This document shows, piece by piece, positions 401 to 13,276 of a stretch of DNA of 13,542 nt. A model generated the notes under the pieces. The model made no database searches. It saw only the letters and a program-made list of their open reading frames with translations, and was not told where the DNA came from. Numbering within the stretch: the stretch's first letter is position 1; each line of letters starts with the position of its first letter. The position numbers and the translations under genes are program-made. The DNA comes from an uncultured bacterium. Its GTDB lineage: Bacteria > Hydrogenedentota > Hydrogenedentia > Hydrogenedentales > JAEUWI01. The stretch lies in contig CAXBPH010000192.1 in the NCBI GenBank assembly GCA_963977445.1, positions 1 through 13,542 on the forward strand. The letters run 5' to 3'.

Positions 401-1246
401 ATGAAACTGTCCCGTATACCAAAGGTCGCGATACTCTTCGTGCCTGTTTTTGTAGCAAGCTTGTGTGGCATTGCGTCCGCACAGCCGAAACCTGCGGCAA
501 GCGACACGTCGCTAGGAGAGGAGTTGATGGACCTTCGCGCGACCGTAGCGCGGCTAGAGGCGGCACTGGAACAAGACCACAAAGGAATGTCGGCGGATAG
601 CAATGCGGCGTCGAGCAGTTCAGACATGGGGGCGATGAAGGACATGAATGCGGGGGACAAGAAAATGGGGATGATGGGCTCCATGGGCGACAAGGAGATG
701 GGCTCCATGGGCGACAAGAAGATGGGCTCCATGGGCGACAAGGAGATGGGCTCCATGGGCGACAAGAAGATGGGCTCCATGGGCGACAAGGAGATGGGGA
801 TGATGGGGATGATGGGTTCCATGAAGATGAGTCCGGCGATGGCCACTCCGTCGGCATTGCCGGGATTTCCCGGTGCGTCTCACCTGTACCACATTGGCGA
901 AACAGGTTTTTTCCTGAATCACGATGAGCACATCGAACTTTCCAAGGAGCAACGGACGGCGTTGAGCCAGATTAAGGAGAAAGGGCTGCTCGCGAAGAAT
1001 AGCGCCGACCGGCAAATAGAGGAGGCCGAACAAGGCCTTTGGGAGTTGACCGCATCCGAAGAGCCCGAAGCGGCGACGATCGAGAAGCAGGTCCGCCTGA
1101 TCGAAAAGCTTCGCGGCGACCAACGCCTTCAGTTCATTCGGGCCGTTGGCGAGGCCGGTCAAGTCCTGACCTCGGAACAGCGAAAAGCGCTGTTGGGTCA
1201 GGAATCTTCCCAAACCGCGCCGGCCGCCGACCAACAGCAACATTAA
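401..1246 (+). CDS. Secreted/periplasmic Met-rich protein with C-terminal Spy/CpxP/ZraP-like (periplasmic heavy-metal sensor type) helical domain, 281 aa
   Basis: RBS AAGGAG at 387-392. Signal peptide MKLSRIPK-hydrophobic-ASA|Q. 23 Met in residues 76-147. The C-terminal domain has the paired L-[ST]-x-EQ-R motifs of the LTXXQ/Spy/CpxP family (IELSKEQR...VLTSEQRKAL) and a His-rich lead-in (SHLYHIG..NHDEH). Confidence 0.85.
   Translation: MKLSRIPKVAILFVPVFVASLCGIASAQPKPAASDTSLGEELMDLRATVARLEAALEQDHKGMSADSNAASSSSDMGAMKDMNAGDKKMGMMGSMGDKEMGSMGDKKMGSMGDKEMGSMGDKKMGSMGDKEMGMMGMMGSMKMSPAMATPSALPGFPGASHLYHIGETGFFLNHDEHIELSKEQRTALSQIKEKGLLAKNSADRQIEEAEQGLWELTASEEPEAATIEKQVRLIEKLRGDQRLQFIRAVGEAGQVLTSEQRKALLGQESSQTAPAADQQQH
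674..793 (+). repeat. In-frame 24-bp tandem repeat x5 (ATGGGCTCCATGGGCGACAAG[G/A]AG = MGSMGDK[E/K])
   Basis: Units start at 674, 698, 722, 746 and 770. They are identical except for the last codon, which alternates GAG/AAG/GAG/AAG/GAG (a 48-bp higher-order unit x2.5). Confidence 0.97.
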
Positions 1247-1265
1247 CCCCGACAGGAGACAGACC

Positions 1266-1562
1266 ATGAAAGTATCAACAAAAACCACGTCTACACCGTT
1301 TACATGTCACGCACCGGAGGCGAGCCAGGTATTCGTTTCGGGAACATTCAATGATTGGAGTGCGGATGCCACGCCGTTGAAGCCGGGGAGCCGAGGAAAA
1401 TGGTCGGTAAAAGTCGCTCTGGCACCCGGCCATCACGAATACAAGTTTATCGTGGACGGTGTATGGTGCTGTGAGCCTGGATGTGATGGACCCCACACCG
1501 GGTGCATGGGCTGTGTGCCTAACGCGTTCGGAACCATGAACCGGTTTGTTGAGGTAAAATGA
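1266..1562 (+). CDS. Small CBM48 / AMPK-beta-like glycogen-binding domain protein with Cys/His-rich insertion, 98 aa
   Basis: RBS AGGAG at 1254-1258. Family motifs APEASQVFVSGTFNDW, GKWSVKVALAPG.HEYKFIVDGVW and VPNAFGTMN.. are present. No signal peptide. Loop CCEPGCDGPHTGCMGC. The stop overlaps the next start (ATGA 1559-1562). Confidence 0.85.
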   Translation: MKVSTKTTSTPFTCHAPEASQVFVSGTFNDWSADATPLKPGSRGKWSVKVALAPGHHEYKFIVDGVWCCEPGCDGPHTGCMGCVPNAFGTMNRFVEVK

Positions 1563-3595
1563 TGGCTAACTCTGCAATCAGACGCGCCGCCCTGGCGGTG
1601 GTCGTCACGGCTTCGCTGGCCCTGATAGCTGGCTTGGCCACGCCGGTTCATGCGCAAGTGTCACCGGAAGAACACGCCAGCCACCATCCCGGAGAAGCCG
1701 GCGGAGCCGATCCCTCGACCGAGACACCGGCAACGGACCCAGTGGAATCGGGCCCGGTAACGGGCGACGGAGGAATGGCCGACCAGCAGTCGGATAAGGG
1801 CGGCATGGGTGGTGGCGGAGGCATGATGGGCGGAGGCGGAGGCGGTATGGGAAAGATGATGGAGAAGAAGGGTGCGGCTGCGCCGAAGCAGCTCTACCCC
1901 ACCCTCATGGCGCTGCCCGACATGCCGCTGGAGCAACGGCAAGAAGTGCAACAGCAGGCCCACGCGCGCATGAAGGCGGGGGCGGCGCTCATGTCGGAAG
2001 GTCTCCAGGCGCTGTCCCGTACGGCCCCATCGGACGATTTCGCCGCGATGCAGGATGCCTCTGCAACGCTAAGGGAAGGGCTATCCCAGTTTGATAGCGG
2101 GCTCGCCGCCCACCGCGCGCTGGCCGAAGGGAAGGCCCCCCGAAACGTCGCGCTGACGTGGTTCAAGCGTGAGATGAACCTCCTCGCACCTGGCCCTGGT
2201 CAAGTCTACCGGGGTCCTCTCGGTCTATCCTGGCTGCATTTCTTTACCATGTTGATACTTTCGCTCTTTGCCGCGGCCATGATCGCGATGTACTTCTTCA
2301 AGATGCGGCGCGCGGCGGCGCTCTTGGGACGCATCGCGGCGGTGAGCCCGCGCGAAAGCGCTGCCCCCGCGACCGACGGCGTGGCGGCGTCTATGGAATC
2401 TACTGCGGACTCGCCCAGACGGACCTCGATTGATACTGGACAGGCCGCACCCGATGACTGCTGCGGCGGGGGCGGCGGGGATTGCGCGAGCGAAGCGATT
2501 CCGGCCGTGCCCGGCACCTCACACGGTCTGCTCGCGATCGCGGAACGCAAACTTTGCCGCTTGCGCGTCGCCAGAATTGCTCAAGAGACGCCCGATGTAA
2601 AGACGTTTCGACTGGTAGCATGTCACGGGGGAAGCATCCCCTTCAGCTACCTTCCAGGACAATTCCTTACGCTTACGCTTCCGGTGGACGAGAAGCCGAT
2701 TCGCCGCAGCTACACGATATCTTCAGCGCCCACTCAGGGTTACTATTGCGAAATAACGGTGAAGCGCGAAGAACAAGGTGCGGGATCGCGCTTCTTGCAC
2801 GACAAACTGACCGTAGGCGATACGTTGGAGGTCAAAGCCCCCAGCGGGAAGTTCCTGTTCACGGGACAAGAAGCCGACAGCATCGTCCTCATAGGCGGCG
2901 GCGTGGGTATCACCCCGATGATGAGCATAGCGCGCGCCCTGACGGACATGGCATGGCAAGGCGACATCTATTTTATCGCCGCCTGTCAGGATCCGGAGCA
3001 CTTCATATTTGAGTCCGAGCTAGAGCAGTTGGAGGCGCGGTACGCAAACCTTCATCTCTTTGTTGCCATGAGCCGTATTGAGGCTGACATCGGGAAGTAT
3101 CGTAGCGGGCGACTATCGAAGGACTTGCTCGCAGAATGGATACCCGACCTGAAGGAAAAGTGGGTCCAGCTATGCGGGGCACCCGCAATGATGGACGCCA
3201 CCAGCGAAATGCTGAAAGAGCTTGGAGTTCTAGAGGCAGACATTCACACGGAAAATTTCGGCTCAACGCAAAAACCAAAGGCAAAAGTGGCCGAGGGGCA
3301 GGAAGCAGCCCAAAATGCGCGAGAGAAAGAACATGGCATTGTGTTGTCGTTTGCGAAGTCGAACGTTTCGACCGAACTTCTCCCCGATGAAACCGTGCTC
3401 GAAGCGTCTGAGCGCGCCGATGTCAATATAGACTACTCCTGCCGGGTGGGCAGCTGCGGCGAATGCAAGGTCAAGTTACTCTCTGGAACGGTCGTAATGG
3501 AAGAAGAAAGTGGCTTGGATCCCGGCGAGAAGGAATCAGGAATAATTCTTGCCTGCCAGGCTAAATGCAGCGGCAACATTTCGGTGGATGCCTAG
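1559..3595 (+). CDS. Membrane-anchored FNR-family FAD/NAD(P)H oxidoreductase with C-terminal plant-type [2Fe-2S] ferredoxin and exported His/Met-rich N-terminal domain, 678 aa
   Basis: Signal peptide ending VHA|Q, then EEHASHHP and a Gly/Met tract. One TM helix (WLHFFTMLILSLFAAAMIAMYFF) followed by KMRR. FAD motifs PGQF, RRSYTISS, GAGSRFLH. NAD motifs GGGVGITP, LCGAPAM, HTENF. Ferredoxin motif CRVGSCGEC...ILACQ (Cx4Cx2C..C). Start may be 1559 or 1562. Confidence 0.92.
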   Translation: MMANSAIRRAALAVVVTASLALIAGLATPVHAQVSPEEHASHHPGEAGGADPSTETPATDPVESGPVTGDGGMADQQSDKGGMGGGGGMMGGGGGGMGKMMEKKGAAAPKQLYPTLMALPDMPLEQRQEVQQQAHARMKAGAALMSEGLQALSRTAPSDDFAAMQDASATLREGLSQFDSGLAAHRALAEGKAPRNVALTWFKREMNLLAPGPGQVYRGPLGLSWLHFFTMLILSLFAAAMIAMYFFKMRRAAALLGRIAAVSPRESAAPATDGVAASMESTADSPRRTSIDTGQAAPDDCCGGGGGDCASEAIPAVPGTSHGLLAIAERKLCRLRVARIAQETPDVKTFRLVACHGGSIPFSYLPGQFLTLTLPVDEKPIRRSYTISSAPTQGYYCEITVKREEQGAGSRFLHDKLTVGDTLEVKAPSGKFLFTGQEADSIVLIGGGVGITPMMSIARALTDMAWQGDIYFIAACQDPEHFIFESELEQLEARYANLHLFVAMSRIEADIGKYRSGRLSKDLLAEWIPDLKEKWVQLCGAPAMMDATSEMLKELGVLEADIHTENFGSTQKPKAKVAEGQEAAQNAREKEHGIVLSFAKSNVSTELLPDETVLEASERADVNIDYSCRVGSCGECKVKLLSGTVVMEEESGLDPGEKESGIILACQAKCSGNISVDA

Positions 3596-3609
3596 TGGAG
3601 ATATATAAA

Positions 3610-4359
3610 ATGAGGGAACGTGAACCGTTGATCGTGGGCGGCCTCGTGCTGTTCCTTTTCGTGTTGTGGCTGGGTTTCCCGCTCCATGAGTCCGCGCGTT
3701 TTGCGGGCAGCTTCTGGGGTGGGATGCTCGGAGTAAGCGGGAGCGCGCTGATGCTGGTGCCCCTGGCCTACCTGTTCGTAAAGAGAATCAAGCCGCTGAA
3801 GCGATGGCTAACGGGGTTTGTATCGATGCGCACGCTGCTGGCGTGGCACATCTACGCGGGCGTTCTCGGGCCGATTCTCGTATTGGTCCATACTGGACAC
3901 AGGTTTGAAAGCACGTTGGGTGTCGCGCTGACGGCGATGGTCTTGATCGTGGTACTTAGCGGCTTTGTGGGACGGTACTTGATGAGCAAGATTGGCCGGG
4001 AGATTAAGGACAAGCGCGCACTTCTTGATACGGCAAATGTGGAATACGAACGCGCGCTGGAAGAATTGCCCGAACATCCAGAGGAAATATCCCTCGCCCG
4101 ATCGCTACGAAGTGCCACTGCCCGATTGTTTTTCCAAACTGAGGGAAACGCGGACACTCCCCTTCCCACCGGAGTTCGCGCGGTGCGCCTGGCCGAATCC
4201 GTAGCCGATCTCGAGTTTGCCGTTCGCACCCATGAGGCCTTCAAGAGCGCCTTCGCCACCTGGCTGAAGATTCACATCGCCCTCTCCGTTGCCCTCTACG
4301 CGCTGCTCGGCGTTCATGTCTGGGCGGCCCTCTACTTCGGCATAAGGTGGTTTAAATGA
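3610..4359 (+). CDS. Integral membrane di-heme cytochrome b-like protein (ferric reductase-like transmembrane type), 249 aa
   Basis: Start moved from 3565 to ATG 3610 because of GGAG at 3597-3600 just after the upstream stop. About 5 TM helices. Two helices each carry His-x13-His (WHIYAGVLGPILVLVH, His80/94; IHIALSVALYALLGVH, His222/236), the geometry of bis-His di-heme b carriers. The stop overlaps the next start (ATGA 4356-4359). Confidence 0.8.
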   Translation: MREREPLIVGGLVLFLFVLWLGFPLHESARFAGSFWGGMLGVSGSALMLVPLAYLFVKRIKPLKRWLTGFVSMRTLLAWHIYAGVLGPILVLVHTGHRFESTLGVALTAMVLIVVLSGFVGRYLMSKIGREIKDKRALLDTANVEYERALEELPEHPEEISLARSLRSATARLFFQTEGNADTPLPTGVRAVRLAESVADLEFAVRTHEAFKSAFATWLKIHIALSVALYALLGVHVWAALYFGIRWFK

Positions 4360-5171
4360 ACGCTCGAAAAGCAATGACCGGATCTGCGGTAATTCTGACG
4401 CCCACCGCGCTCTTAGTGCTTATGTTCTACGCATTGAGTCCGGTCGACAGCGGACGCAACGGGACGACCCACATGTGGTACTCCGCCGTCAATCCAGGCC
4501 CACTGTCAGCGGCACACGCTCAACTCGAAAATAACTGCGCCGCATGCCATGCCCCCGTACAAGGGGTAACCCCAAGTAATTGCATCGTTTGCCACGCCAA
4601 CGATGCGTCCTTGTTGAAACGCCAGCCCACCGCCTTTCACGCCGAGATCAGCAGTTGTAGTGAATGCCACCTCGAACACAAAGGGCGCGACAAACGCCCC
4701 ACATCGATGGACCATGGGGCATTGGCAAAGATAGCCCTCGGCGATTTAGCAAAGAATCCGGACCCAAACAGTGAAGATCGGGCGACCATGCGGCGAATAG
4801 TTCATTGGCTCACGTTCGATTCTTCGGGATCGGGGCCTGTCGAACCGGGCCTCTCTCCGATCGAGAACAGTCTCGATTGCACCTCTTGCCACGGGAATGA
4901 TGACCGGCATTTCGGATTGTTTGGGGCCGATTGCGCATCGTGCCACGGGACCCAGACATGGACGATTCCGGCGTTTCGCCACCCACCGTCCAAGTCCATG
5001 GATTGTGGTCAGTGCCACCAAGCGCCGCCCAGCCACTACATGGGGCACTTTGCAATGATTTCCAAAAAAGTCGCCGCCCAGCCCCATGCCCAAGTCGACC
5101 AATGTTACAAGTGCCACCAGACCACAGCCTGGCCAGACATTTTGGGCAAGGGCTGGTACAAGCACCACTAA
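4356..5171 (+). CDS. Membrane-anchored multiheme (7 CxxCH) cytochrome c, cytochrome c3-like, 271 aa
   Basis: N-terminal hydrophobic anchor/signal. Heme motifs CAACH, CIVCH, CSECH, CTSCH, CASCH, CGQCH and CYKCH. 13 further His residues are available as distal ligands. Confidence 0.93.
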   Translation: MNARKAMTGSAVILTPTALLVLMFYALSPVDSGRNGTTHMWYSAVNPGPLSAAHAQLENNCAACHAPVQGVTPSNCIVCHANDASLLKRQPTAFHAEISSCSECHLEHKGRDKRPTSMDHGALAKIALGDLAKNPDPNSEDRATMRRIVHWLTFDSSGSGPVEPGLSPIENSLDCTSCHGNDDRHFGLFGADCASCHGTQTWTIPAFRHPPSKSMDCGQCHQAPPSHYMGHFAMISKKVAAQPHAQVDQCYKCHQTTAWPDILGKGWYKHH

Positions 5172-5226
5172 AGATGGAGGAAGTGGTCTCACGCCATCCA
5201 GTGCCAACCAATTGGGAGTCGAGTTC

Positions 5227-6549
5227 GTGTTTGAACAAATAATGGCTGCTGCGGCATACGCCGCTGACGCGGGAGTTCCCGAGAATGCGGACAGCCTCAC
5301 GTTGCTCCTGATCGAGATTTCGGTCATCCTTGTTGCGGCCAAGGGCGGGGGCCATATTGCGCTGAAGCTCGGGCAACCGGGAATTCTGGGCGAACTTGTC
5401 GCTGGCGTCGCAATGGGTGCGCTGTCACGGCTGGTGCTCCCAGGCCAACTCCACGACCTGTTTGTTCTCTCAACGGGACCAGAATCCCATTTGGCCATCC
5501 TGGGCGAACTCGGGATCTTGTTGTTGCTCTTTCGTGTTGGCCTTGAGAGTTCCCCGCGCGATCTGATGGGCGTGGGGGCAACGTCGCTGTTCGTCGCCGT
5601 GGGCGGCGTCTTGCTCCCACTCGGCATGGGATACTTCGTGTGCAACCTTCTTGCTAGCGACTTTCCCGATATTGCCAACAAGTGGCAGATGCACCTTTTC
5701 GTTGGCGCCACCATGGCCGCCACGAGCGTGGGCGTAACTGCGAGTGTACTGTCGGAAATGAAAAGGCTTCGGAGCCGTGAGTCGCGGATCATCCTTGGGG
5801 CAGCGATTATCGACGACATCTTGGGATTGCTGCTGCTTGCAATTATTACGGGAGTCATCGGGGGCACCCAGAACGGCTCAGAGATACGCCTTATTCCAAT
5901 AATCGTGTCGGTCGCGGTGAGCGCATCGATCTTCATTGTCGTCGGAACGCTCGCCGGGACATGGATTGCGCGGCGTTACCTGCGCCTACTCAGGCGGATT
6001 AATGGTTCGGGCGCCTACGCCGCCGGATTGATCGCATTCTGTCTGTTGTTTTCGACCGCCGCTGAACTCTCTGGCCTTGCGCCGATTGTGGGCGCGTTTC
6101 TGGCAGGCCTGGTAATCGATGACGGGGTTAATTCATCCACGGCCGATGTCGCGCGCGACACCGACCAAATCGGGCGCGGGGAGCGCGAGTTGGCTCCAGT
6201 GATCGCGATCTTGGCACCGATCTTCTTCGTGCTCATGGGCATGCAAGTACGCATCGATTCAATATTGTCGCTGAAAATGGCGCTCTTCACCGCCGCGATT
6301 ACGGCAGTGGCAATAATTGGAAAGTTTGTCGTTGGCTTTGTCGTCCCGGGCTCCCTACGAAGCAAAGCGTTTGTGGGGGCCGGGATGGTTCCACGGGGCG
6401 AAGTGGGCCTCATATTCGCCGCCGTCGGGCGAACGGTGGGCGCCATTGGAGAAGAGACTTTCAGCGCGCTCGTTTTTATGGTCATTCTCACCACCTTGGT
6501 GGCCCCACCATTGCTCAAATACTTTGGACGGGATCTCGAAACCGAATAG
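5227..6549 (+). CDS. CPA2-family cation/H+ antiporter (NapA-like), ~440 aa
   Basis: Many TM segments. Motifs LGQPGILGELVAG, LLLFRVGLES, ATSVGVTA, GAAIIDDILG (DD motif), VGAFLAG, PIFFVLMG and GMVPRGEVGLIFA. Likely start GTG 5227 (GGGAG at 5214-5218) or ATG 5242; the 5086 start overlaps the cytochrome gene. No C-terminal KTN/RCK domain. Confidence 0.9.
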   Translation: MFEQIMAAAAYAADAGVPENADSLTLLLIEISVILVAAKGGGHIALKLGQPGILGELVAGVAMGALSRLVLPGQLHDLFVLSTGPESHLAILGELGILLLLFRVGLESSPRDLMGVGATSLFVAVGGVLLPLGMGYFVCNLLASDFPDIANKWQMHLFVGATMAATSVGVTASVLSEMKRLRSRESRIILGAAIIDDILGLLLLAIITGVIGGTQNGSEIRLIPIIVSVAVSASIFIVVGTLAGTWIARRYLRLLRRINGSGAYAAGLIAFCLLFSTAAELSGLAPIVGAFLAGLVIDDGVNSSTADVARDTDQIGRGERELAPVIAILAPIFFVLMGMQVRIDSILSLKMALFTAAITAVAIIGKFVVGFVVPGSLRSKAFVGAGMVPRGEVGLIFAAVGRTVGAIGEETFSALVFMVILTTLVAPPLLKYFGRDLETE

Positions 6550-6582: not shown

Positions 6583-6804
6583 TTACGCGTCGGTTCGGGT
6601 GGTAGAAGTAAAATTACCTTTCCGGCATTCCAAAATGTCTCCAATATGTTGCCTTACCTCGTTGTCCTCCGCATCCAAACCTGCTTTTCGGGCGTTTGCC
6701 AATAGCTTCTCCCAATCATCATGTTCCCATCGCCCCCTATGGGAATCGACGAACGCCTCTGCGAGGGTGCGCATTTTCTTGAACTCCGTTTTACCTGTTG
6801 TCAT
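6583..6804 (-). CDS. Small hypothetical helical protein, 73 aa
   Basis: Strong RBS on the minus strand (CAGGAGAAACCGTGCC-ATG). Natural-looking amphipathic sequence (LAEAFVDSHRGRWEHDDWEKLL). Does not overlap other genes. Upstream sigma54-like motif. Family not recognised. Confidence 0.7.
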   Translation of the reverse strand: MTTGKTEFKKMRTLAEAFVDSHRGRWEHDDWEKLLANARKAGLDAEDNEVRQHIGDILECRKGNFTSTTRTDA

Positions 6805-6876
6805 GGCACGGTTTCTCCTGTGACTTCATGTTGGGTGTTCCCATTGAACTTCACCACTTCACGAACGCTTATATAC

Positions 6877-6892
6877 AGCAAGAAGCGTACCC
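6877..6892 (-). promoter_or_regulatory. Putative sigma54 -24/-12 promoter for the 73-aa ORF
   Basis: The minus strand reads GGGTACGCTTCTTGCT: GG-N10-GC with ACG-N4-TTGCT matching consensus, ~70 nt upstream of the ATG at 6804. Confidence 0.5.
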
Positions 6893-7656
6893 GGTCGAAC
6901 ACACGGAGCGTGGGCATTGTTAGATGCTGTTGTACCAGCAAATCGCCTGCGGCTGACGTGCACTTGTGCAAACCACAAAATATTTCGCCAGGCTGCTAAG
7001 TGGTCAGAAACGAAAGAGGTCGTGTACAGGAACTTTCTTGCAGGCTACGCCTTCGACATTACGCCAGGCATATTGGCATTGAAAACCGGGGGCTTGCCGA
7101 AACTATAAGGGTCGCACGGTTCCCTCTTTGCCAGAATGTTTGAGACGGCCTCCTTGTAAGAATTAGTGTCGAGGGCGAGGAGCCAATAGATGGCCAATAA
7201 TCGTATATCAGGGAAATATACCGGGGAGTGACGCCAAAACGCGGTGCCGCTCCGGACAGAGTCGGTACCGGGACCGGAAGTGCCCGCAGTGCCCCAACCG
7301 CGACGTTTCTCGGCGGATTACAAAGCTGGTATCGTCCAAGAGGCCGACGCGTGCCGTGAAAAGGGAGAGCCACCTGCGTTCCCCGCAGGAGAAAACATTT
7401 CATTCACAAGGCGACAATAGGTAAAGTCCACACCAGAGACGCCTTGACGGACCGATGTTACGAGTATCTCAAGCTGCCTCGCCCTTTCAGCGCCATTCCT
7501 GGGGCATGCCGATGTCTATCTCCTCATTCGTGATTCCGGCCCCTTTTCCACCACCCCACAAACACCCGACACAAGCTTGCGTTTCCCGCACCAAAACCCC
7601 ACACTAAAGCTATGCTTCGGGGGAGGCTTGGCTGCTCCGAAGGCAAAGGAGAGACC

Positions 7657-8793
7657 ATGTTTCGAATTTATGCTGCTTTGTTGATAGCGACCCTCGCCAT
7701 CAGCCCACTCGCCCACGCCAGTTGGATACCCACCTCCAACGTCAACGTCTGGAACGAGGCCACGGAATTAGCGGGACCGAAAATCGTTATTGAATACGAT
7801 CTGGAAGCCCCGGACCTCAGTCCGGCGGCCCCCGCCTATGTCTTCCTCCACTACCGCATGGGCAGCACCGAAAGCTGGACCCTCCTCGAGGCCGATTCCC
7901 TCGGCGGCAATGGCGCGGGCATGGTGGAAGAAGCCGGCCATAAGAAAGTCATCTGGTGGGGTGCGAGCCAGAATGTGCACCAGGAGGTGGACGCCCTCGA
8001 AGTTCAAGTGCGCGCCCTCCCCATGGTCGCCGTCCCCGGCGGGGAATTCAAACTCCGTAGTCTCCCCGGTCAAGGTCGGGACCAATCCGGTCGCCACACG
8101 ACGTCCCGCTCCACCCTCCCCACCTACTATCTGGCGAAGTACGAAACGACCACCGCCATGTATGCCGACTATCTCAATGCCGTGGGCGACGATGGCACGG
8201 GCTACCACGAGAAAATGGCGAATGAAAAACGCTGTGGCATCCTCCGCGGGGAAAACGGCACCTATACGGTGGCACCCGGCCGGGAAAATTATCCTGTCTC
8301 CTATGTCTCCTGGTACGACGCGGTGGGTTTCCTTCGTTGGTGTGGCTTGCGCCTGCCCACCGAATCGGAATGGGAAAAAGCGACCTGCGGCGGACTCTTC
8401 CTGGATGGCGACGAAGCAAAAGCCGTCCCCAATCCCATGCCCGAACGGCGCTATCCCTGGGGCGATGAGGTGCCCAATGCGGAGGGCGCCTTTCGCTGCA
8501 ATTTTGACGGCGAGGAAGATGGCTACCCCAATGTGGCGCCCGTGGGCAGTTTCGCGAAGTTCAACAGCCCCTATGGCGCCTGTGATCTGGCGGGTAACGT
8601 CAATGAGTGGACAATCGACTGGTACACCACCCAACACCATGCCGGACTGGATGGCTACCGCGTAACCCGGGGTGGCTCGTGGCTGGATGTGCCCGAAGGG
8701 TGCGACGGCGTATCGGGTGCTACCCTGTTGCCCTACAAAGAGAGCTCTATCATGGGTTTTCGTGGCGTGAGCGGCCCGCCCGCGCTGCCCTGA
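7657..8793 (+). CDS. Exported formylglycine-generating-enzyme (FGE-sulfatase/SUMF1) domain protein with N-terminal beta-rich domain, 378 aa
   Basis: RBS AAGGAG before ATG 7657. Signal peptide ending AHA|S. FGE-fold motifs KYETT, PVSYVSWYDA, RLPTESEWEKA, RYPWG, PVGSF, DLAGNVNEW, RGGSW and GFR. Lacks the Cys pair of catalytic FGE, so probably a non-catalytic family member. Confidence 0.88.
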   Translation: MFRIYAALLIATLAISPLAHASWIPTSNVNVWNEATELAGPKIVIEYDLEAPDLSPAAPAYVFLHYRMGSTESWTLLEADSLGGNGAGMVEEAGHKKVIWWGASQNVHQEVDALEVQVRALPMVAVPGGEFKLRSLPGQGRDQSGRHTTSRSTLPTYYLAKYETTTAMYADYLNAVGDDGTGYHEKMANEKRCGILRGENGTYTVAPGRENYPVSYVSWYDAVGFLRWCGLRLPTESEWEKATCGGLFLDGDEAKAVPNPMPERRYPWGDEVPNAEGAFRCNFDGEEDGYPNVAPVGSFAKFNSPYGACDLAGNVNEWTIDWYTTQHHAGLDGYRVTRGGSWLDVPEGCDGVSGATLLPYKESSIMGFRGVSGPPALP

Positions 8794-8851
8794 ACGAAAA
8801 ACAACCCTTTGCCGCTTCCTGCTGCAGAGGCAACGATTGGAGGATCAGGTA

Positions 8852-10201
8852 ATGAGTACGCTGAAACGCAGAAGTTTTCTAAAGAGTTCACTCGGCGCCG
8901 CCGCCACGCTGGCCGCACTTCAAGCCGGGGCGGGCGTCTCCGCCAACGACAAGATCATCGTGGGCGTCATGGGCCTCGGTGGCCGGGGCAAGGCCCTCCT
9001 CGCCAGCCTGGCAAAACGGAGCGACGTCCACATCAAGTACCTGTGTGACTGCGACACCCGCATGGCCGGTGCGGCGACGGAAATCGTCATGGAGGGCCTC
9101 GACGAAAAGCCCACCTTCGTACAGGATTTCCGCACCATCCTCGACGACCCGGAAGTCCACGCCCTCATTTGTTCCACCTCCGACCGGTGGCACGCCCTCG
9201 CCACCATCATGGCCTGTCAGGCCGGTAAGGATGTGTACGTCGAAAAACCCCAGTCCATGAGCGTCTGGGACGGCCAGCAAATGATTGCTGCCTCCCGAAA
9301 ATATGAACGCATCGTCCAGGTGGGCATGCAGACCCGCAGCGCGCCCTATGTCCAATCCGCCATGAACTACATCCAGAGCGGCAAGCTCGGCGATGTCATG
9401 CTGGCCCGCGTTTACCTCATGCAGGCCGGTGGCCCCGACCCCACCGCCGACGAACAACCCATCCCCGATGGCCTGGACTACGACCTGTGGTGCGGGCCCT
9501 CTCCCATGCTGCCCTATCGGCCCGGCCTTTGGTTTCAAAAACATTGGGACTTCTACAATGGTGCCTTGACAGGCGACTTAATCCATCAGGTGGATATCGC
9601 CCGACTCCTCATTGGAAAAAAAGCGCCCAACTCCGTGTTCAGCGCGGGCGGCGTTTACCGTTTCGACGATGGCCGCGAACAGCCCGACACCCAGTTCTCC
9701 ACCTTCGAGTTCGACAAGGTGACCATGATGATGGAGGGCGGTTTCTGGTGTCCCTACAACCACCGCATCGTCCACCTGCCCGACAAGAGCAAGTTTCCCG
9801 ACTGGCAATTCAGCGCCACCAAAATAGAAGTCCTCGGCACCCAGGGCATCATGTATTTCGGCCGTCACGGCGGCGGCTGGGAAGTCTTCGAAGGGGACGG
9901 CAAGACGCGCTCCTCCAAGGCCGTCGCTTCAGAGCTCTCCGAATACAAATGGGGCGGCATCATCGACCTTCACTTCGATGATTTCTTCAAATGCATCCGC
10001 GACCGCTCCACCCCCAAGACCGACGTGGCCGACGGACACCATTCCATGAACCTCTGCCACCTCGCCAATATCTCCAACCGCCTGGGCAACCAGAAACTGC
10101 GGTGGGATGGCGAGAAAGAAGAATTCATCGACCACCCGGAAGCCAACCGACTCCTCCGCGCCAAATACCGCGCCCCCTGGGTCATCCCCGAAACAGTCTA
10201 G
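8852..10201 (+). CDS. Tat-signal Gfo/Idh/MocA family oxidoreductase, 449 aa
   Basis: GGAGG at 8839-8843 and ATG 8852. Tat motif KRRSFLK. Rossmann motif GVMGLGGRG. Family motifs DRWH, AGKDVYVEKP, QVGMQTRS, LDYDLWCGP and IHQVD; C-terminal CHLANIS...EANRLL...YRAPW. Confidence 0.93.
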   Translation: MSTLKRRSFLKSSLGAAATLAALQAGAGVSANDKIIVGVMGLGGRGKALLASLAKRSDVHIKYLCDCDTRMAGAATEIVMEGLDEKPTFVQDFRTILDDPEVHALICSTSDRWHALATIMACQAGKDVYVEKPQSMSVWDGQQMIAASRKYERIVQVGMQTRSAPYVQSAMNYIQSGKLGDVMLARVYLMQAGGPDPTADEQPIPDGLDYDLWCGPSPMLPYRPGLWFQKHWDFYNGALTGDLIHQVDIARLLIGKKAPNSVFSAGGVYRFDDGREQPDTQFSTFEFDKVTMMMEGGFWCPYNHRIVHLPDKSKFPDWQFSATKIEVLGTQGIMYFGRHGGGWEVFEGDGKTRSSKAVASELSEYKWGGIIDLHFDDFFKCIRDRSTPKTDVADGHHSMNLCHLANISNRLGNQKLRWDGEKEEFIDHPEANRLLRAKYRAPWVIPETV

Positions 10202-10215
10202 TCTAAAAACACATG

Positions 10216-10251
10216 TGACCCGTCGGTTTTCCGCTGACGGGTCATTTTTTT
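10216..10251 (+). terminator. Rho-independent terminator
   Basis: Stem TGACCCGTCGG / CTGACGGGTCA (11 bp with one G-U), 7-nt loop, followed by T7, starting 14 nt after the stop codon. Confidence 0.9.
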
Positions 10252-10319
10252 GCCTCCGAGGCGGATTTCGACCAGGCCACAAGTGTACCGTCTTGCCTGC
10301 GACCTTTGGAGGGAATACC

Positions 10320-10373
10320 ATGAGGCGAATCGATAATCGCAAGTCATCACCCATGATTGGATCATCACCATGA
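10320..10373 (+). other. Putative 17-aa upstream ORF (MRRIDNRKSSPMIGSSP) coupled to the DUF962 gene
   Basis: GGAGG at 10308-10312 lies 7 nt before ATG 10320. Its TGA overlaps the DUF962 ATG (ATGA 10370-10373), which has no clear SD of its own. Confidence 0.4.
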
Positions 10374-10894
10374 AAAATATCGCCGAACACATGTCCTTCT
10401 ACGAGGCCTATCATAAACACCCCCTCAACAAAGCCACCCACTTTGTGGGGATTCCCATGATTATCTATGGCATCCTGGTTCCCATGAGTGCGTTGGGTGT
10501 GCCCGTCGGAGGCGTTTCCATCACCCTTGCCATGGCCTTCGTGGTGAGCGTCCTGACCTACTACTGCGTACTCGACCGGACATTTGGTATTGCCATGTGT
10601 CTTGTCATCACCCCCATCCTCGCCCTCGCCCATTTTACGGTGCAACAAGGAACGGCCCTATGGATCGCCGTGGCATTGGGGGCCTTTGTCCTTGGATGGG
10701 TATTCCAGTTGTTCGGACACATCGTCTTTGAAAAACGTCGCCCCGCCCTCGCCGACAACCTCTTTCAACTCATCATCGGTCCCCTCTTTCTCTGTGCCGA
10801 GCTATTCTTCATGATGGGCTTTAAGAAGGCACTCCATACACGCGTGTTGGAACTCGCGAAAGGCCATGCCCTGAAGCAGCCGGAAGTGGCGTAG
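10370..10894 (+). CDS. DUF962 / Mpo1-like membrane protein, 174 aa
   Basis: Signature Y..YH..P.N...HFVGIPMI and GWVFQLFGH..FEKRRPAL.DNL.Q.IIGPLF; several TM helices. Confidence 0.88.
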   Translation: MKNIAEHMSFYEAYHKHPLNKATHFVGIPMIIYGILVPMSALGVPVGGVSITLAMAFVVSVLTYYCVLDRTFGIAMCLVITPILALAHFTVQQGTALWIAVALGAFVLGWVFQLFGHIVFEKRRPALADNLFQLIIGPLFLCAELFFMMGFKKALHTRVLELAKGHALKQPEVA

Positions 10895-10924
10895 TGACTG
10901 CAAACACGTATATTTCCGTTCCTC

Positions 10925-10954
10925 ATTCGTGAAAATTCGTGTCCATTCGTGGTT
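10925..10954. repeat. Short 10-bp-period repeat (ATTCGTG x3) between convergent genes
   Basis: ATTCGTG at 10925, 10935 and 10945 (ATTCGTGAAA ATTCGTGTCC ATTCGTGGTT). Confidence 0.75.
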
Positions 10955-11009
10955 CCAGACTGTCGGCACAATCCCTTTACCGCCAGGAGCGGCGAAGGTG
11001 ACCGTCCCG

Positions 11010-12317
11010 CTACCAATACCGCGCCGCCGCACGATAGAGAACCTGCAAATCCTTTTCATCCACGGCGACCGGCGAATTCGAGAGCAGTCGCTGTTGCGCC
11101 CAGGCCCCTTCGGCCAACCCGGGGATGTCCCCCTCCCCGTATCCCAGCGCGCCAATCCCGTTCGGCATGGCTGTGTCACCCATCATCTGGATAACCTGCG
11201 CCGCCAAGACCTCCCCTGCGTCCCCATCCCCCGCACCGGCGACATCCGCACCGAGGAGTTGGGCGATTTCCAGGTGCCGCGCGGGCATGGACGGCGCCGT
11301 AAAACGAACCACCGAGGGCACGTCCACAATCACCGAAATACCGTGGGGACAAATGGGCTCGCCCTGCGGATAGCCGTCAGGACAATAGTCGCGGATCATC
11401 CCCGCCACCGAGTAGGCCATACCATGGGGCAGGTGGACGCCAGAATTCCCGAAGGCGATGCCCGCCAGCGTCGCGGCAAACATCATGCCATGACGGGCTT
11501 CGGTGTCGGTGGCGTCGCGAACCGCACGCACGAGGAATTCCCCGCAACTGCGCAGGGCCTCCCGGCAGCCCACATCGCTCCAGGGATTGGCCCCCTGCCC
11601 CATGGGCCGCAGGTCGGGACGTTCGGGCGCGGGGCGGCGGGTGTAGGGCCGGGCGGTGTAGGACTCCAGCGCGTGGCTGAGCACGTCAAAACCGCTGGCG
11701 GCCACCACATTGGCGGGCAACGTGGCGGTGACCGTAGGGTCGATGAGGGCGAGGGTCGGACGCAGGCGGCGCGAGGCGATGCCCGTCTTCACGTGGCGCT
11801 CCAGCAGGTCGAAAATGGCCATCCCCGTGCATTCGCTGCCCGTGCCCGCCGTGGTGGGACAGGCAATGTGGGGTTTCAGCGGCCCCGGCACAGCACGACC
11901 CTCGCCGATAGGGGCATTCACATAGGCCAGAAACTCCGCCGGGTAGGTGGCGTAAAGGTTGGCCGCCTTACAGGTGTCGATGACCGAACCGCCGCCAACG
12001 GAAACATAGCCATCAAAATTACCATCCGATGCAAAACGGGCTGCCTCCTTAAAAGATTTGTCCGTCGGCTCGACGCGCACGGCGTCATAGACCGCCACGT
12101 CCACACCCGCCTGTTCCAGAGCCGTTCGGACCGTGGCAACACATTCCAACTGCGCCACATCCGCATCGGTAAAGAGGGCTACGCGTTTCAAGCCAAGTTC
12201 ATTGGCCCCGTGCCCGGCTTCCGCCAAGGCTCCCGGCCCAAAACGGATGGCGCTTGGGTCTACAGAAAAGACGTGCTCGTGGCCGTCCATAAATTCATAG
12301 TGATGGCAGCAGGACAT
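11010..12317 (-). CDS. Hydroxyacid-oxoacid transhydrogenase (HOT/ADHFE1-like; iron-containing alcohol dehydrogenase family), 435 aa
   Basis: RBS GGAGAG before the ATG at 12317. Motifs [77 protein letters not shown] and PHGISV are characteristic of the HOT subfamily. Confidence 0.9.
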
Positions 12318-12631
12318 AAAACGCTCTCTCCGATTGGTTGCAGATAACAGGATAACGCAACAGCCATCGAAAGAGATAGTCTTGGCCACCACGTTGGCAG
12401 CGGGCCATAGACGCTCGGTAAGCCGGTAGCTCCATGGGCTTCCATTGGAATCACGACAAGGGTGCCACCTATACGGACGGGAGGCACGAGCGGCCTTATG
12501 GGTGCAAGCGATTGCAGGGCCACCTATCCTTCAGATAGTATGGCGCTCCCTTTGAAATATCCCGGCAGGTTTGGCAGCCACGATGCTTACCAACTCCGCA
12601 TAACAACGCCATCATAAACAGGAACACCAAA

Positions 12632-13276
12632 ATGGAAATGATCCCTGAAGTGGATGAGTACATCGAGAAAAACGAGGCTTGGCAGGAGGAGCTGCGCGCC
12701 TTACGAGCGATTGCTCTGGACTGCCAGCTTGCGGAAACACTGAAATGGCGTGTGCCCTGCTACACGTTTCAGGGGAAAAATGTGATTATGCTCGGCAGAT
12801 TCAAAGAATATTGTGCCCTGAGTTTCATGAAAGGCGCCCTGTTGAAGGACTCCCAAAAGATTCTCGAATTACCCGGCGAGAACACGCGGTCAGGCCGTGT
12901 TATTCGCTTCACCACCGCGCAGAAAATCGCGGAGATGGCCCCCATCTTAACGGCCTATATCGAAGAGGCCGTTGCGGTGGAAATAGCGGGGCTGAAAGTA
13001 GATTTCTCAGAAAACCGAAACCTCGACTATCCGGAAGAACTGCAAGCCAGGCTCGATGAACTCCCCGCCTTGGAAAAAGCCTTTGATGCCCTGACCCCCG
13101 GTCGAAAACGGGCCTACGTGATGCATTTCGCAGCGGCCAAACAATCCACGACCCGGGCGTCACGGGTCGAAAAATTTATGCCGAGAATTCTCGATGGCAA
13201 AGGACTGAATGATTGCACCTGTGGCCATTCCAAGAAGATGCCCCAGTGTGACGGCTCCCACAAGAACTTTCGGTAG
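12632..13276 (+). CDS. YdeI/OmpD-associated family protein (DUF1801 + OmdA-like) with C-terminal CDGSH iron-sulfur motif, 214 aa
   Basis: VDEYI...W.EEL..LR, ETLKWRVPCY, FKEYCALSFMKGALLKD, AFDALTPGRKRAY and AKQSTTR..RVEK..PRILDGKGLND, then CTCGHSKKMPQCDGSH. AGGA upstream; the start may be 12632 or 12638. Confidence 0.88.
   Translation: MEMIPEVDEYIEKNEAWQEELRALRAIALDCQLAETLKWRVPCYTFQGKNVIMLGRFKEYCALSFMKGALLKDSQKILELPGENTRSGRVIRFTTAQKIAEMAPILTAYIEEAVAVEIAGLKVDFSENRNLDYPEELQARLDELPALEKAFDALTPGRKRAYVMHFAAAKQSTTRASRVEKFMPRILDGKGLNDCTCGHSKKMPQCDGSHKNFR

Follow-up and report, generated by a model that had tools for sequence, protein, structure and literature searches.

The window analysed here, a stretch of 13,542 nucleotides from an uncultured bacterium of the Hydrogenedentota, encodes at positions 1266..1562 of the forward strand a stand-alone cytoplasmic protein of 98 amino acids (open reading frame, Pfam, AF2, Foldseek) that represents a Cys-loop subfamily of the AMPK-beta-type CBM48 glycogen-binding modules (hereafter, the CBM). 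The fold and the family are already known, and the Cys-loop variant is what is new. Members of this subfamily join a predicted glycogen site to a loop rich in cysteines, and their genes track with copper islands and with a gene cluster that resembles a transmembrane electron conduit. We tentatively read the protein, from its residues and its gene neighbours, as a bifunctional accessory whose loop would bind a soft metal, most likely Cu(I), and would thereby change how the protein binds glycogen and, with it, how much NAD(P)H is supplied; this is a possible interpretation, and we do not hold it with confidence.

The CBM48 protein and its predicted glycogen site

Both Pfam models of the family match the protein above their cut-offs (AMPK1_CBM, PF16561, E 2.4e-15, 56.9 bits against 26.8; CBM_48, PF02922, E 1.7e-9, 38.3 bits against 22.4), and this search confirms the sequence-only reading, which had recognised a CBM48-like module carrying a Cys loop. 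The AF2 model has a pLDDT of 83 (31-row alignment); its beta-sandwich is confident and the loop region, residues 71-90, is weak (60-70). Comparison with AMPK beta gives a Foldseek E of about 1e-6, TM 0.6-0.73 and Z 11-12. The top Foldseek and VIA-align matches are the CBMs of AMPK/SNF1 beta and SEX4, as are the nearest solved sequences, and the ESM Atlas matches are CBM48 clusters only. No hydrophobic segment is found in the 98 residues (the top 19-residue Kyte-Doolittle mean is 0.54), and therefore there is no signal peptide, which agrees with the cytoplasmic location proposed earlier.

The gene is preceded by an AGGAG ribosome-binding site (1254..1258, forward strand), 7 nt upstream of its ATG, and a promoter scan of the window gave one candidate against 3.1 expected, none above chance. 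At its other end, the stretch 1551..1564 (forward strand) holds a GAGG in the final CBM codons, the CBM stop and the two overlapping starts of the reductase gene (ATG 1559 or ATG 1562). The ATGA overlap pointed out in the sequence-only reading is real for ATG 1559, but the likelier start is probably ATG 1562, with a TGATG overlap, because it stands 7 nt from the GAGG against 4 nt for ATG 1559.

All the segments of the sugar-binding type (FNDW, YKF, DGxW and the terminal GTMN) are present. According to the alignments, the span 1356..1541 (forward strand) holds the glycogen-contact residues W31 (1356), K60 (1443), W67 (1464), F88 (1527) and T90 (1533), together with the conserved N92 (1539). With numbering read from the alignments, these five contacts correspond to W100, K126, W133, L146 and T148 of AMPK beta1, F88 for L146 being a conservative change, and mutation of these AMPK residues markedly lowers glycogen binding (PMC2642990). 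The site is kept throughout the subfamily: W31 in 87/88 members, K60 and W67 in 89/89, F88 in 68/89, G89 in 88/89, T90 in 83/89 and N92 in 88/89. The predicted glycogen site of AMPK-beta type is thus complete in the Cys-loop CBM. It had been noted before that sugar-binding residues were retained, and the Trp, Lys and Thr contacts indeed turn out to be nearly invariant. This speaks against the suggestion, made at the same time, of a CBM fold repurposed as a metallochaperone, since the contact residues (the two Trp and the Lys) are kept better than any cysteine; loss of sugar binding was ruled out on the same ground.

A variable cysteine loop defines the subfamily

The Cys loop, C68-C69-x3-C73-x6-C80-x2-C83, is encoded at 1467..1514 (forward strand), and its residues 68-83 read CCEPGCDGPHTGCMGC, with five Cys and one His. 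In the alignments it is 7 residues longer than in the bacterial short-loop forms and 8 longer than in AMPK beta, the 8-residue insertion relative to AMPK beta2 falling after the AMPK segment W-x-x-D-P in a profile alignment. This Cys-rich insertion directly follows the sugar-stacking W67, and the loop joins W67 to the F88-G-T90 hairpin, i.e. the two parts of the sugar site, so that whatever orders the loop could tune that site.

The full pattern WCC-x3-C-x5-8-CxxC is found in 29 of 51 database homologues, the query counted. To describe conservation, 95 long-loop sequences were pooled, of which 89 remained at no more than 90% identity. In this set C68 is kept in 78/89, C69 in 86/89, C73 in 59/86, C80 in 68/88 and C83 in 76/89, that is, each in 69-97%. 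A sixth subfamily-specific cysteine, C14 in strand beta1 (1305..1307, forward strand), which had been overlooked in the earlier reading, occurs in 62/86 long-loop sequences and in only 1/102 short-loop ones. Judged from these alignments, the pattern is more than chance, and the idea that the loop defines a subfamily is borne out by its 89 non-redundant members and by the distribution of C14.

The number of loop cysteines per member ranges from 1 to 6, many members lack two to four of them, and all five occur together in 48/88. No cysteine is invariant, and H77, D74 and G75 are kept in just 17/81, 38/89 and 32/89; P81 is found in 55/89, the CxxC thus often reading CPxC. An Fe-S site, which had been envisaged for this loop, is therefore unsupported as a property of the family, since the number of ligands varies from 1 to 6 and the five-Cys set is limited to 48/88. 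C68, C69, C80 and C83 are each kept in 77-97%, so that a majority subgroup could have a fixed site of four ligands, of the Fe-S or Zn-finger kind. The His that had been counted as part of the motif was ruled out as a family ligand (17/81).

All five loop cysteines are present in 12/18 copies directly behind the gene for the Met-rich protein described below (MetRes), versus 9/27 elsewhere (2/7 beside glycogen or zwf genes, 7/20 in other places). With four unparsed loci left out, this comparison has a nominal p of 0.03-0.05, uncorrected for kinship, and it hints that the thiols may matter most in a metal context.

Short-loop relatives, hosts and origin

The bacterial stand-alone "glycogen-binding domain-containing proteins" (W-x2-DP-x5-VPN) share the size and the architecture of the Cys-loop CBM. 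They differ from it by a loop of 11 residues instead of 16-25 and by the lack of the CC pair and of C14; 91/94 have DP at the place of EP. Among these short-loop relatives, 33/94 have W-x2-DP-x-C-x2-C-V, whose cysteines align with C73 and C83; an insertion of 7 residues, with gain of the CC pair and C14, is therefore the probable origin of the long loop. A tree of 137 rows and 79 columns, built without the loop, requires 2 changes of the long-loop label, versus 38.8 in shuffles; on this tree the subfamily is close to one clade and may have a single origin. Its named hosts include Planctomycetota, Verrucomicrobiota, Myxococcota, Acidobacteriota and Elusimicrobiota. A profile search of 1.84 billion representatives gave 4,558 matches at E<=1e-10, many of them multi-domain; the 150 rows from it were swamped by multi-CBM repeat proteins, and none was used in our counts.

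Several variants deserve mention. The short-loop CBM48 with NDPxCxxCV has a fixed lpxI - CBM - radical SAM context in L026-L053 and L099-L118 (mostly Omnitrophota), and a Cys at position 93 in 38/102 short-loop forms possibly marks a separate three-Cys site. On the long-loop side, L018 (7830-8520) carries two tandem copies behind MetRes, and the copies in L176 (5746-6041), from a same-genus relative of the host, and in L069 (8001-8260) are frameshifted, which decay or an assembly error could explain.

The neighbouring genes and the putative electron conduit

Upstream of the CBM gene, on the same strand, lies MetRes (401..1246), an exported Met-rich Spy/CpxP/Metal_resist-like protein (PF13801 3.8e-5, below the cut-off; Spy 0.0055) with four His kept in 29-30 of 30 homologues; it is the most frequent upstream neighbour of the CBM. 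Positions 630-800 of the window encode tandem GSMGDK(E/K)M repeats in this protein, of a kind characteristic of periplasmic proteins that bind Cu(I)/Ag(I).

Downstream, also on the forward strand, come a membrane-anchored reductase (1559..3595), a polytopic membrane protein (3565..4359) and an exported cytochrome c with 7 CxxCH motifs (4356..5171; motif count and Pfam). Hydropathy suggests for the reductase a signal, a His/Met-rich periplasmic part, one transmembrane helix and cytoplasmic FAD/NAD(P)-binding and 2Fe-2S domains. The membrane protein, whose probable start is M16, has six His invariant in 36/36 homologues. Its likeness to ferric reductases and cytochrome b is weak: PF01794 matches it with E 0.003, below the cut-off, and matches 7/28 members; its Atlas neighbour cluster is auto-named "Iron reductase", and a PDB sequence search with it gave chance-level matches only. 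From this anatomy we infer a path for electrons from the cytoplasm to the periplasm, and these three genes are called the conduit below. A CPA2-type cation/proton antiporter (5086..6549, forward strand; Pfam) follows as a variable passenger, also seen in L027 and L192, and a 73-aa reading frame convergent with it (6583-6804, reverse strand) has no family above the cut-off.

Linkage to the conduit and to copper islands

To compare gene neighbourhoods, 160 loci were selected (the top 80 from 578 and the top 80 from 531 confirmed ones), with one window-identical copy left out; they divide into 46 long-loop loci (three added by hand), 97 short stand-alone and 16 fused forms. Homologues of MetRes, the reductase N-part, the membrane protein or the cytochrome lie near 23/46 long-loop genes, and near 0/97 short and 0/16 fused ones. 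When genes for P1B ATPases, CusA/B, multicopper oxidases and YHS proteins are added, the counts become 34/46, 3/97 (one of the three, L069, being the frameshifted long-loop copy) and 0/16, and for loci of at least 10 kb they are 20/24 long versus 2/39 short. Fisher p-values exaggerate the significance here, because these loci share ancestry and were ordered by their similarity to the query.

Two even samples of 401 genomes each bear on the same question. In the phylum of G135 (a planctomycete), the subfamily is found in 7 genomes and the membrane gene in 11, all 7 CBM genomes carrying the membrane gene on the same contig, 1.9-16.7 kb away; in the phylum of G138 (a verrucomicrobe), 4 genomes have the subfamily and 5 the membrane gene, and 4/4 CBM genomes are linked at 3.2-5.7 kb. 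Taken together, the CBM predicts the conduit in 11/11 cases (9/9 without the two chosen centre genomes) and the conduit predicts the CBM in 11/16, with misses possible since 12 and 6 candidates, respectively, were scored per genome. The expectation that the subfamily would track with this operon was well founded, and the linkage extends to metal islands; in some loci that lack the conduit (e.g. L010, L020, L024, L025 and L084) the long-loop CBM sits next to P1B ATPases or Cus pumps.

In 135 genomes of the window's own phylum, the membrane gene has five strong matches and one weak; among these conduit loci the CBM is intact in two and frameshifted in G067, and in G064 and G039 it was not detected next to the cluster. 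Nor was it found in 5 of the 16 sampled PVC genomes with the cluster, or on any of the 54 plasmid records that carry the conduit membrane gene, where the sole match is an alpha-amylase-family enzyme. A core subunit of the conduit was thus rejected as a role for the CBM. The CBM is always with the conduit in the samples but the conduit is often without it; the link is therefore one-way, and the CBM depends on the island. These data also point to a widespread mobile reductase-membrane-heptaheme cluster in copper islands of PVC bacteria, Sphingobium, Caulobacter, Alteromonas and Bacteroidota.

The start/stop overlap with the reductase is real and recurrent, but it is no mark of a dedicated CBM-reductase pair. 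The two genes abut in only 7 of the 32 loci that hold both; among nine seemingly adjacent loci that were checked, the reductase starts -4 to +2 nt from the CBM stop in six and at +9 in one. In the other loci, genes for HD-GYP proteins, GDH, zwf/tal/adhP or unknown products stand between them, or the CBM has a different place in the island. MetRes is more constant as a neighbour, lying directly upstream in 19 loci. The partnership with the reductase that had been read from the overlap is therefore not dedicated, the conduit being also often without the CBM. A complex prediction for the CBM and the cytoplasmic part of the reductase with FAD and Zn scored 0.00 and gives no answer either way.

One subclade of reductases (window 2450-2560, L085, L189, L191 and L192) has a second Cys cluster, DCC-x4-6-C plus LCRL, in its cytoplasmic linker, most other reductases having a Pro/Ala linker without Cys. 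This linker (DCC..C..LCRL) was considered as a fixed partner of the CBM and dropped: it occurs in 5 of about 40 reductases, all CBM-positive, and most CBM-positive loci are without it. The HD-GYP protein, often found between CBM and reductase (L008, L012-L016, L018, L086 and L200), hints at cyclic-dinucleotide control of the island.

Reductant and glycogen genes

No glycogen or dehydrogenase gene lies in the window's own operon; glycogen synthase and phosphorylase are encoded at other places in the genome of the host. In other genomes such genes recur close by. Among the CBM-positive sampled loci, 8/11 have reductant or glycogen genes within the fetched 8-33 kb, and in 6/11 reductant genes stand between CBM and reductase (GDH five times, adhP-tal-zwf once); for CBM-negative sampled conduit loci the figure is 1/4, a fifth contig being too short, and these numbers are too small for significance. 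Five loci have glgP, glgX or a GT5 synthase as an immediate neighbour of the CBM gene (L017, from Stieleria sedimenti with the order glgP-CBM-glgX, and L019, L088, L092 and L199), and three have zwf there (L006, L098 and L107). Short-loop relatives at times also sit by glycogen genes, and an enrichment of glgP near long-loop forms was dropped, the difference (5/46 versus 6/97 near short-loop forms) not being significant.

Of the 54 CBM-free plasmid regions, 12 were examined; 10 of these islands have annotated copper or heavy-metal genes and 8 have reductant or glucan genes, the latter figure standing without a background rate for comparison. These are glgP (L169); glgP, GAPDH and isoamylase (L170); zwf, gnd, tal, GH15 and adhP (L179); a glycogen debranching enzyme (L203); aldehyde and alcohol dehydrogenases (L180, L206); GDH (L178); and a [NiFe] hydrogenase operon (L202). 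None was found in regions L171, L181, L204 and L205. The reductase-membrane-heptaheme cluster (window 1559-5171) occurs on 54 plasmids, mostly in copper islands as far as the 12 examined regions tell, and beside interchangeable sources of reductant. The earlier proposal of a link from glycogen to reductant gains plausibility here because the islands carry glgP, glgX and zwf even without the CBM, and the recurrence of glycogen and NAD(P)H genes beside the cluster suggests that copper resistance brings its own energy supply. Several islands (L178 at 6616-12829, L194, L020 and L092) hold a second F-type ATPase operon along with the conduit or the CBM.

Possible function

Stand-alone bacterial CBM48 proteins are common and we found no assigned role for them; the Cys-loop clade at copper islands gives one of them a testable job. 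In the interpretation that we prefer, the conduit would carry electrons out to the periplasm from NAD(P)H in the cytoplasm under copper stress, while the Cys loop of the CBM would hold a soft metal, most likely Cu(I), in a flexible multi-thiolate site. Metal loading would shift how the CBM sits on glycogen, which would be opened to phosphorylase or debranching enzyme and would feed the pentose-phosphate route; the CBM would be a regulator, or tuner, of the reductant supply and no part of the wire. If true, this would be a sugar-binding module controlled by metal. It is consistent with the inheritance of the CBM together with the Met-rich periplasmic protein, the NAD(P)H/FAD/2Fe-2S reductase, the His-rich membrane protein and the heptaheme cytochrome, in islands that also encode Cu ATPases, Cus pumps and multicopper oxidases and where GDH, zwf/tal/adhP or glgP/glgX are often inserted next to the CBM. 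Against it count the near-monophyly of the subfamily, so that the linkage may reflect a single capture event; the fact that the commonest inserted dehydrogenase, GDH, has no link with glycogen; the lack of a glgP enrichment, and of glycogen or dehydrogenase genes in the window's operon; the conduit without CBM on plasmids and in 5/16 sampled genomes; the frameshifted copies; the loss of two to four loop cysteines in many members; and the CxxC of short-loop relatives outside metal islands (33/94). A bolder version, which we consider rather unlikely, is that copper islands of many phyla encode a transmembrane electron conduit with a swappable "fuel slot", occupied by glycogen/pentose-phosphate enzymes, by glutamate, alcohol or aldehyde dehydrogenase, or by a hydrogenase; the CBM would then be a copper-gated glycogen sensor in which a metal-thiolate cluster switches the sugar site, glycogen being spent for copper detoxification.

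Other explanations have to be weighed as well. The loop might bind Cu(I) like a small metallothionein, with the CBM merely parking the protein on glycogen granules and exerting no control of breakdown. Loose thiolate clusters tolerate a variable number of cysteines and are compatible with vicinal CC and CxxC, as seen here, and such a buffer would fit the conduit-free loci in which the CBM neighbours P1B ATPases or Cus pumps; five or six Cys per 98 residues is nevertheless a low capacity, and the recurring insertions of dehydrogenase and glycogen-catabolic genes beside the CBM would stay unexplained, so that we regard the idea as improbable. It is also improbable, in our opinion, that the CBM is a passenger, i.e. 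an ordinary glycogen-binding protein with a structural Zn or an inert Cys loop, captured once by a mobile metal island. Near-monophyly, dispensability with frameshifted copies, and the CxxC of short-loop relatives in housekeeping contexts (the Omnitrophota lpxI/radical-SAM loci) all speak for a passenger, but the CBM has persisted while its sequences diverged deeply (about 45-68% identity), across at least five named phyla and despite many island rearrangements; it stays within the MetRes-to-reductase gene run in most conduit loci, and it was found away from the conduit in 0/11 cases in the even samples.

Two redox roles appear less probable still. Reversible or mixed disulfides, formed under copper-driven oxidative stress with no metal held, might gate glycogen binding; the frequent CPxC, the position of the loop between the two parts of the sugar site and an island cargo rich in NADPH supply are compatible with this, and yet five or six Cys exceed the need of a disulfide switch and the context is specifically one of metal efflux and oxidation, which makes it quite unlikely. 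A 2Fe-2S or 4Fe-4S cluster in the loop, making the CBM an Fe-S carrier or electron-transfer partner of the reductase, seems very improbable to us in spite of the start/stop overlap or near-overlap in 7 loci and of a PGCDGPH that locally resembles P-x-C-D-G-S-H: the poor retention of H77, D74, G75 and of the five-Cys set given above speaks against it, Pfam finds no zf-CDGSH or Fer match on the CBM, abutting genes are limited to 7/32 loci, and the reductase has its own 2Fe-2S domain and occurs without the CBM.

Comparison with known systems

Titles and abstract openings in the literature searched, which takes in a minority of the subscription journals, describe neither a Cys-loop CBM48 nor what the conduit does; gene tables in supplements could mention these genes. 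The closest relative in structure is the AMPK beta glycogen-binding domain (CBM48; PF16561; PDB 1z0m, 2f15, 4yef), which shares fold and glycogen-contact residues with the CBM and is a non-catalytic module that can serve as a glycogen sensor (PMC2642990). The Cys-loop CBM differs from it in being a free-standing bacterial protein of 98 residues rather than a kinase subunit, with the 8-residue Cys-rich insertion after the W133 equivalent, a Cys at position 14 and a location in metal islands.

Bacterial metallothioneins and the CxxC proteins of the CopZ/HMA type are Cys-rich binders of Cu(I) or Zn with clustered cytoplasmic cysteines. Together with CopY, they share with the CBM such cysteines and the copper context, without kinship in sequence or fold; in contrast to them, the CBM has its thiols grafted on a carbohydrate-binding beta-sandwich, and its metal site is a prediction only. 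A CopZ/HMA metallochaperone (ferredoxin-like fold, MxCxxC) was rejected on this fold and on the lack of an HMA Pfam match. The CDGSH 2Fe-2S motif is C-x-C-x2-S/T-x3-P-x-C-D-G-S-H with a conserved His ligand; a site of this type was also rejected, the CBM having the spacing CC-E-P, H77 in 17/81 and no PF09360 match. The C-terminal motif of CopY, in a copper-resistance context, is CxCxxxxCxC (PMC12648655). Elsewhere in the window (12632-13276), a YdeI/OmdA protein has a C-terminal partial CDGSH iron-sulfur motif (PF09360 over the cut-off) and is unrelated to the CBM.

By analogy, the conduit would work like the MsrPQ/Fre and NOX/ferric-reductase chains, in which a cytoplasmic flavin reductase and a His-ligated membrane protein serve a periplasmic acceptor; it differs from them in a membrane protein below the PF01794 cut-off and a heptaheme cytochrome as acceptor. 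To our knowledge, no CBM accessory is part of those systems. From the gene order in L202 (Alteromonas macleodii pAM1A3), we infer that the membrane protein and the cytochrome of the conduit correspond to the Alteromonas "orf1" and "cyt", which were reported as not required for hydrogenase activity in E. coli (PMC3102683). The HynSL-region genes of Alteromonas sit on a metal-resistance island (PMC4781885; PMC8478169), and the cited passages assign no function to orf1 or cyt. The orf1-cyt pair is without CBM, its neighbouring reductant source being the hydrogenase. In L202 (17992-24711) the HynSL hydrogenase operon follows directly downstream of the conduit, which suggests H2 as the electron source there.
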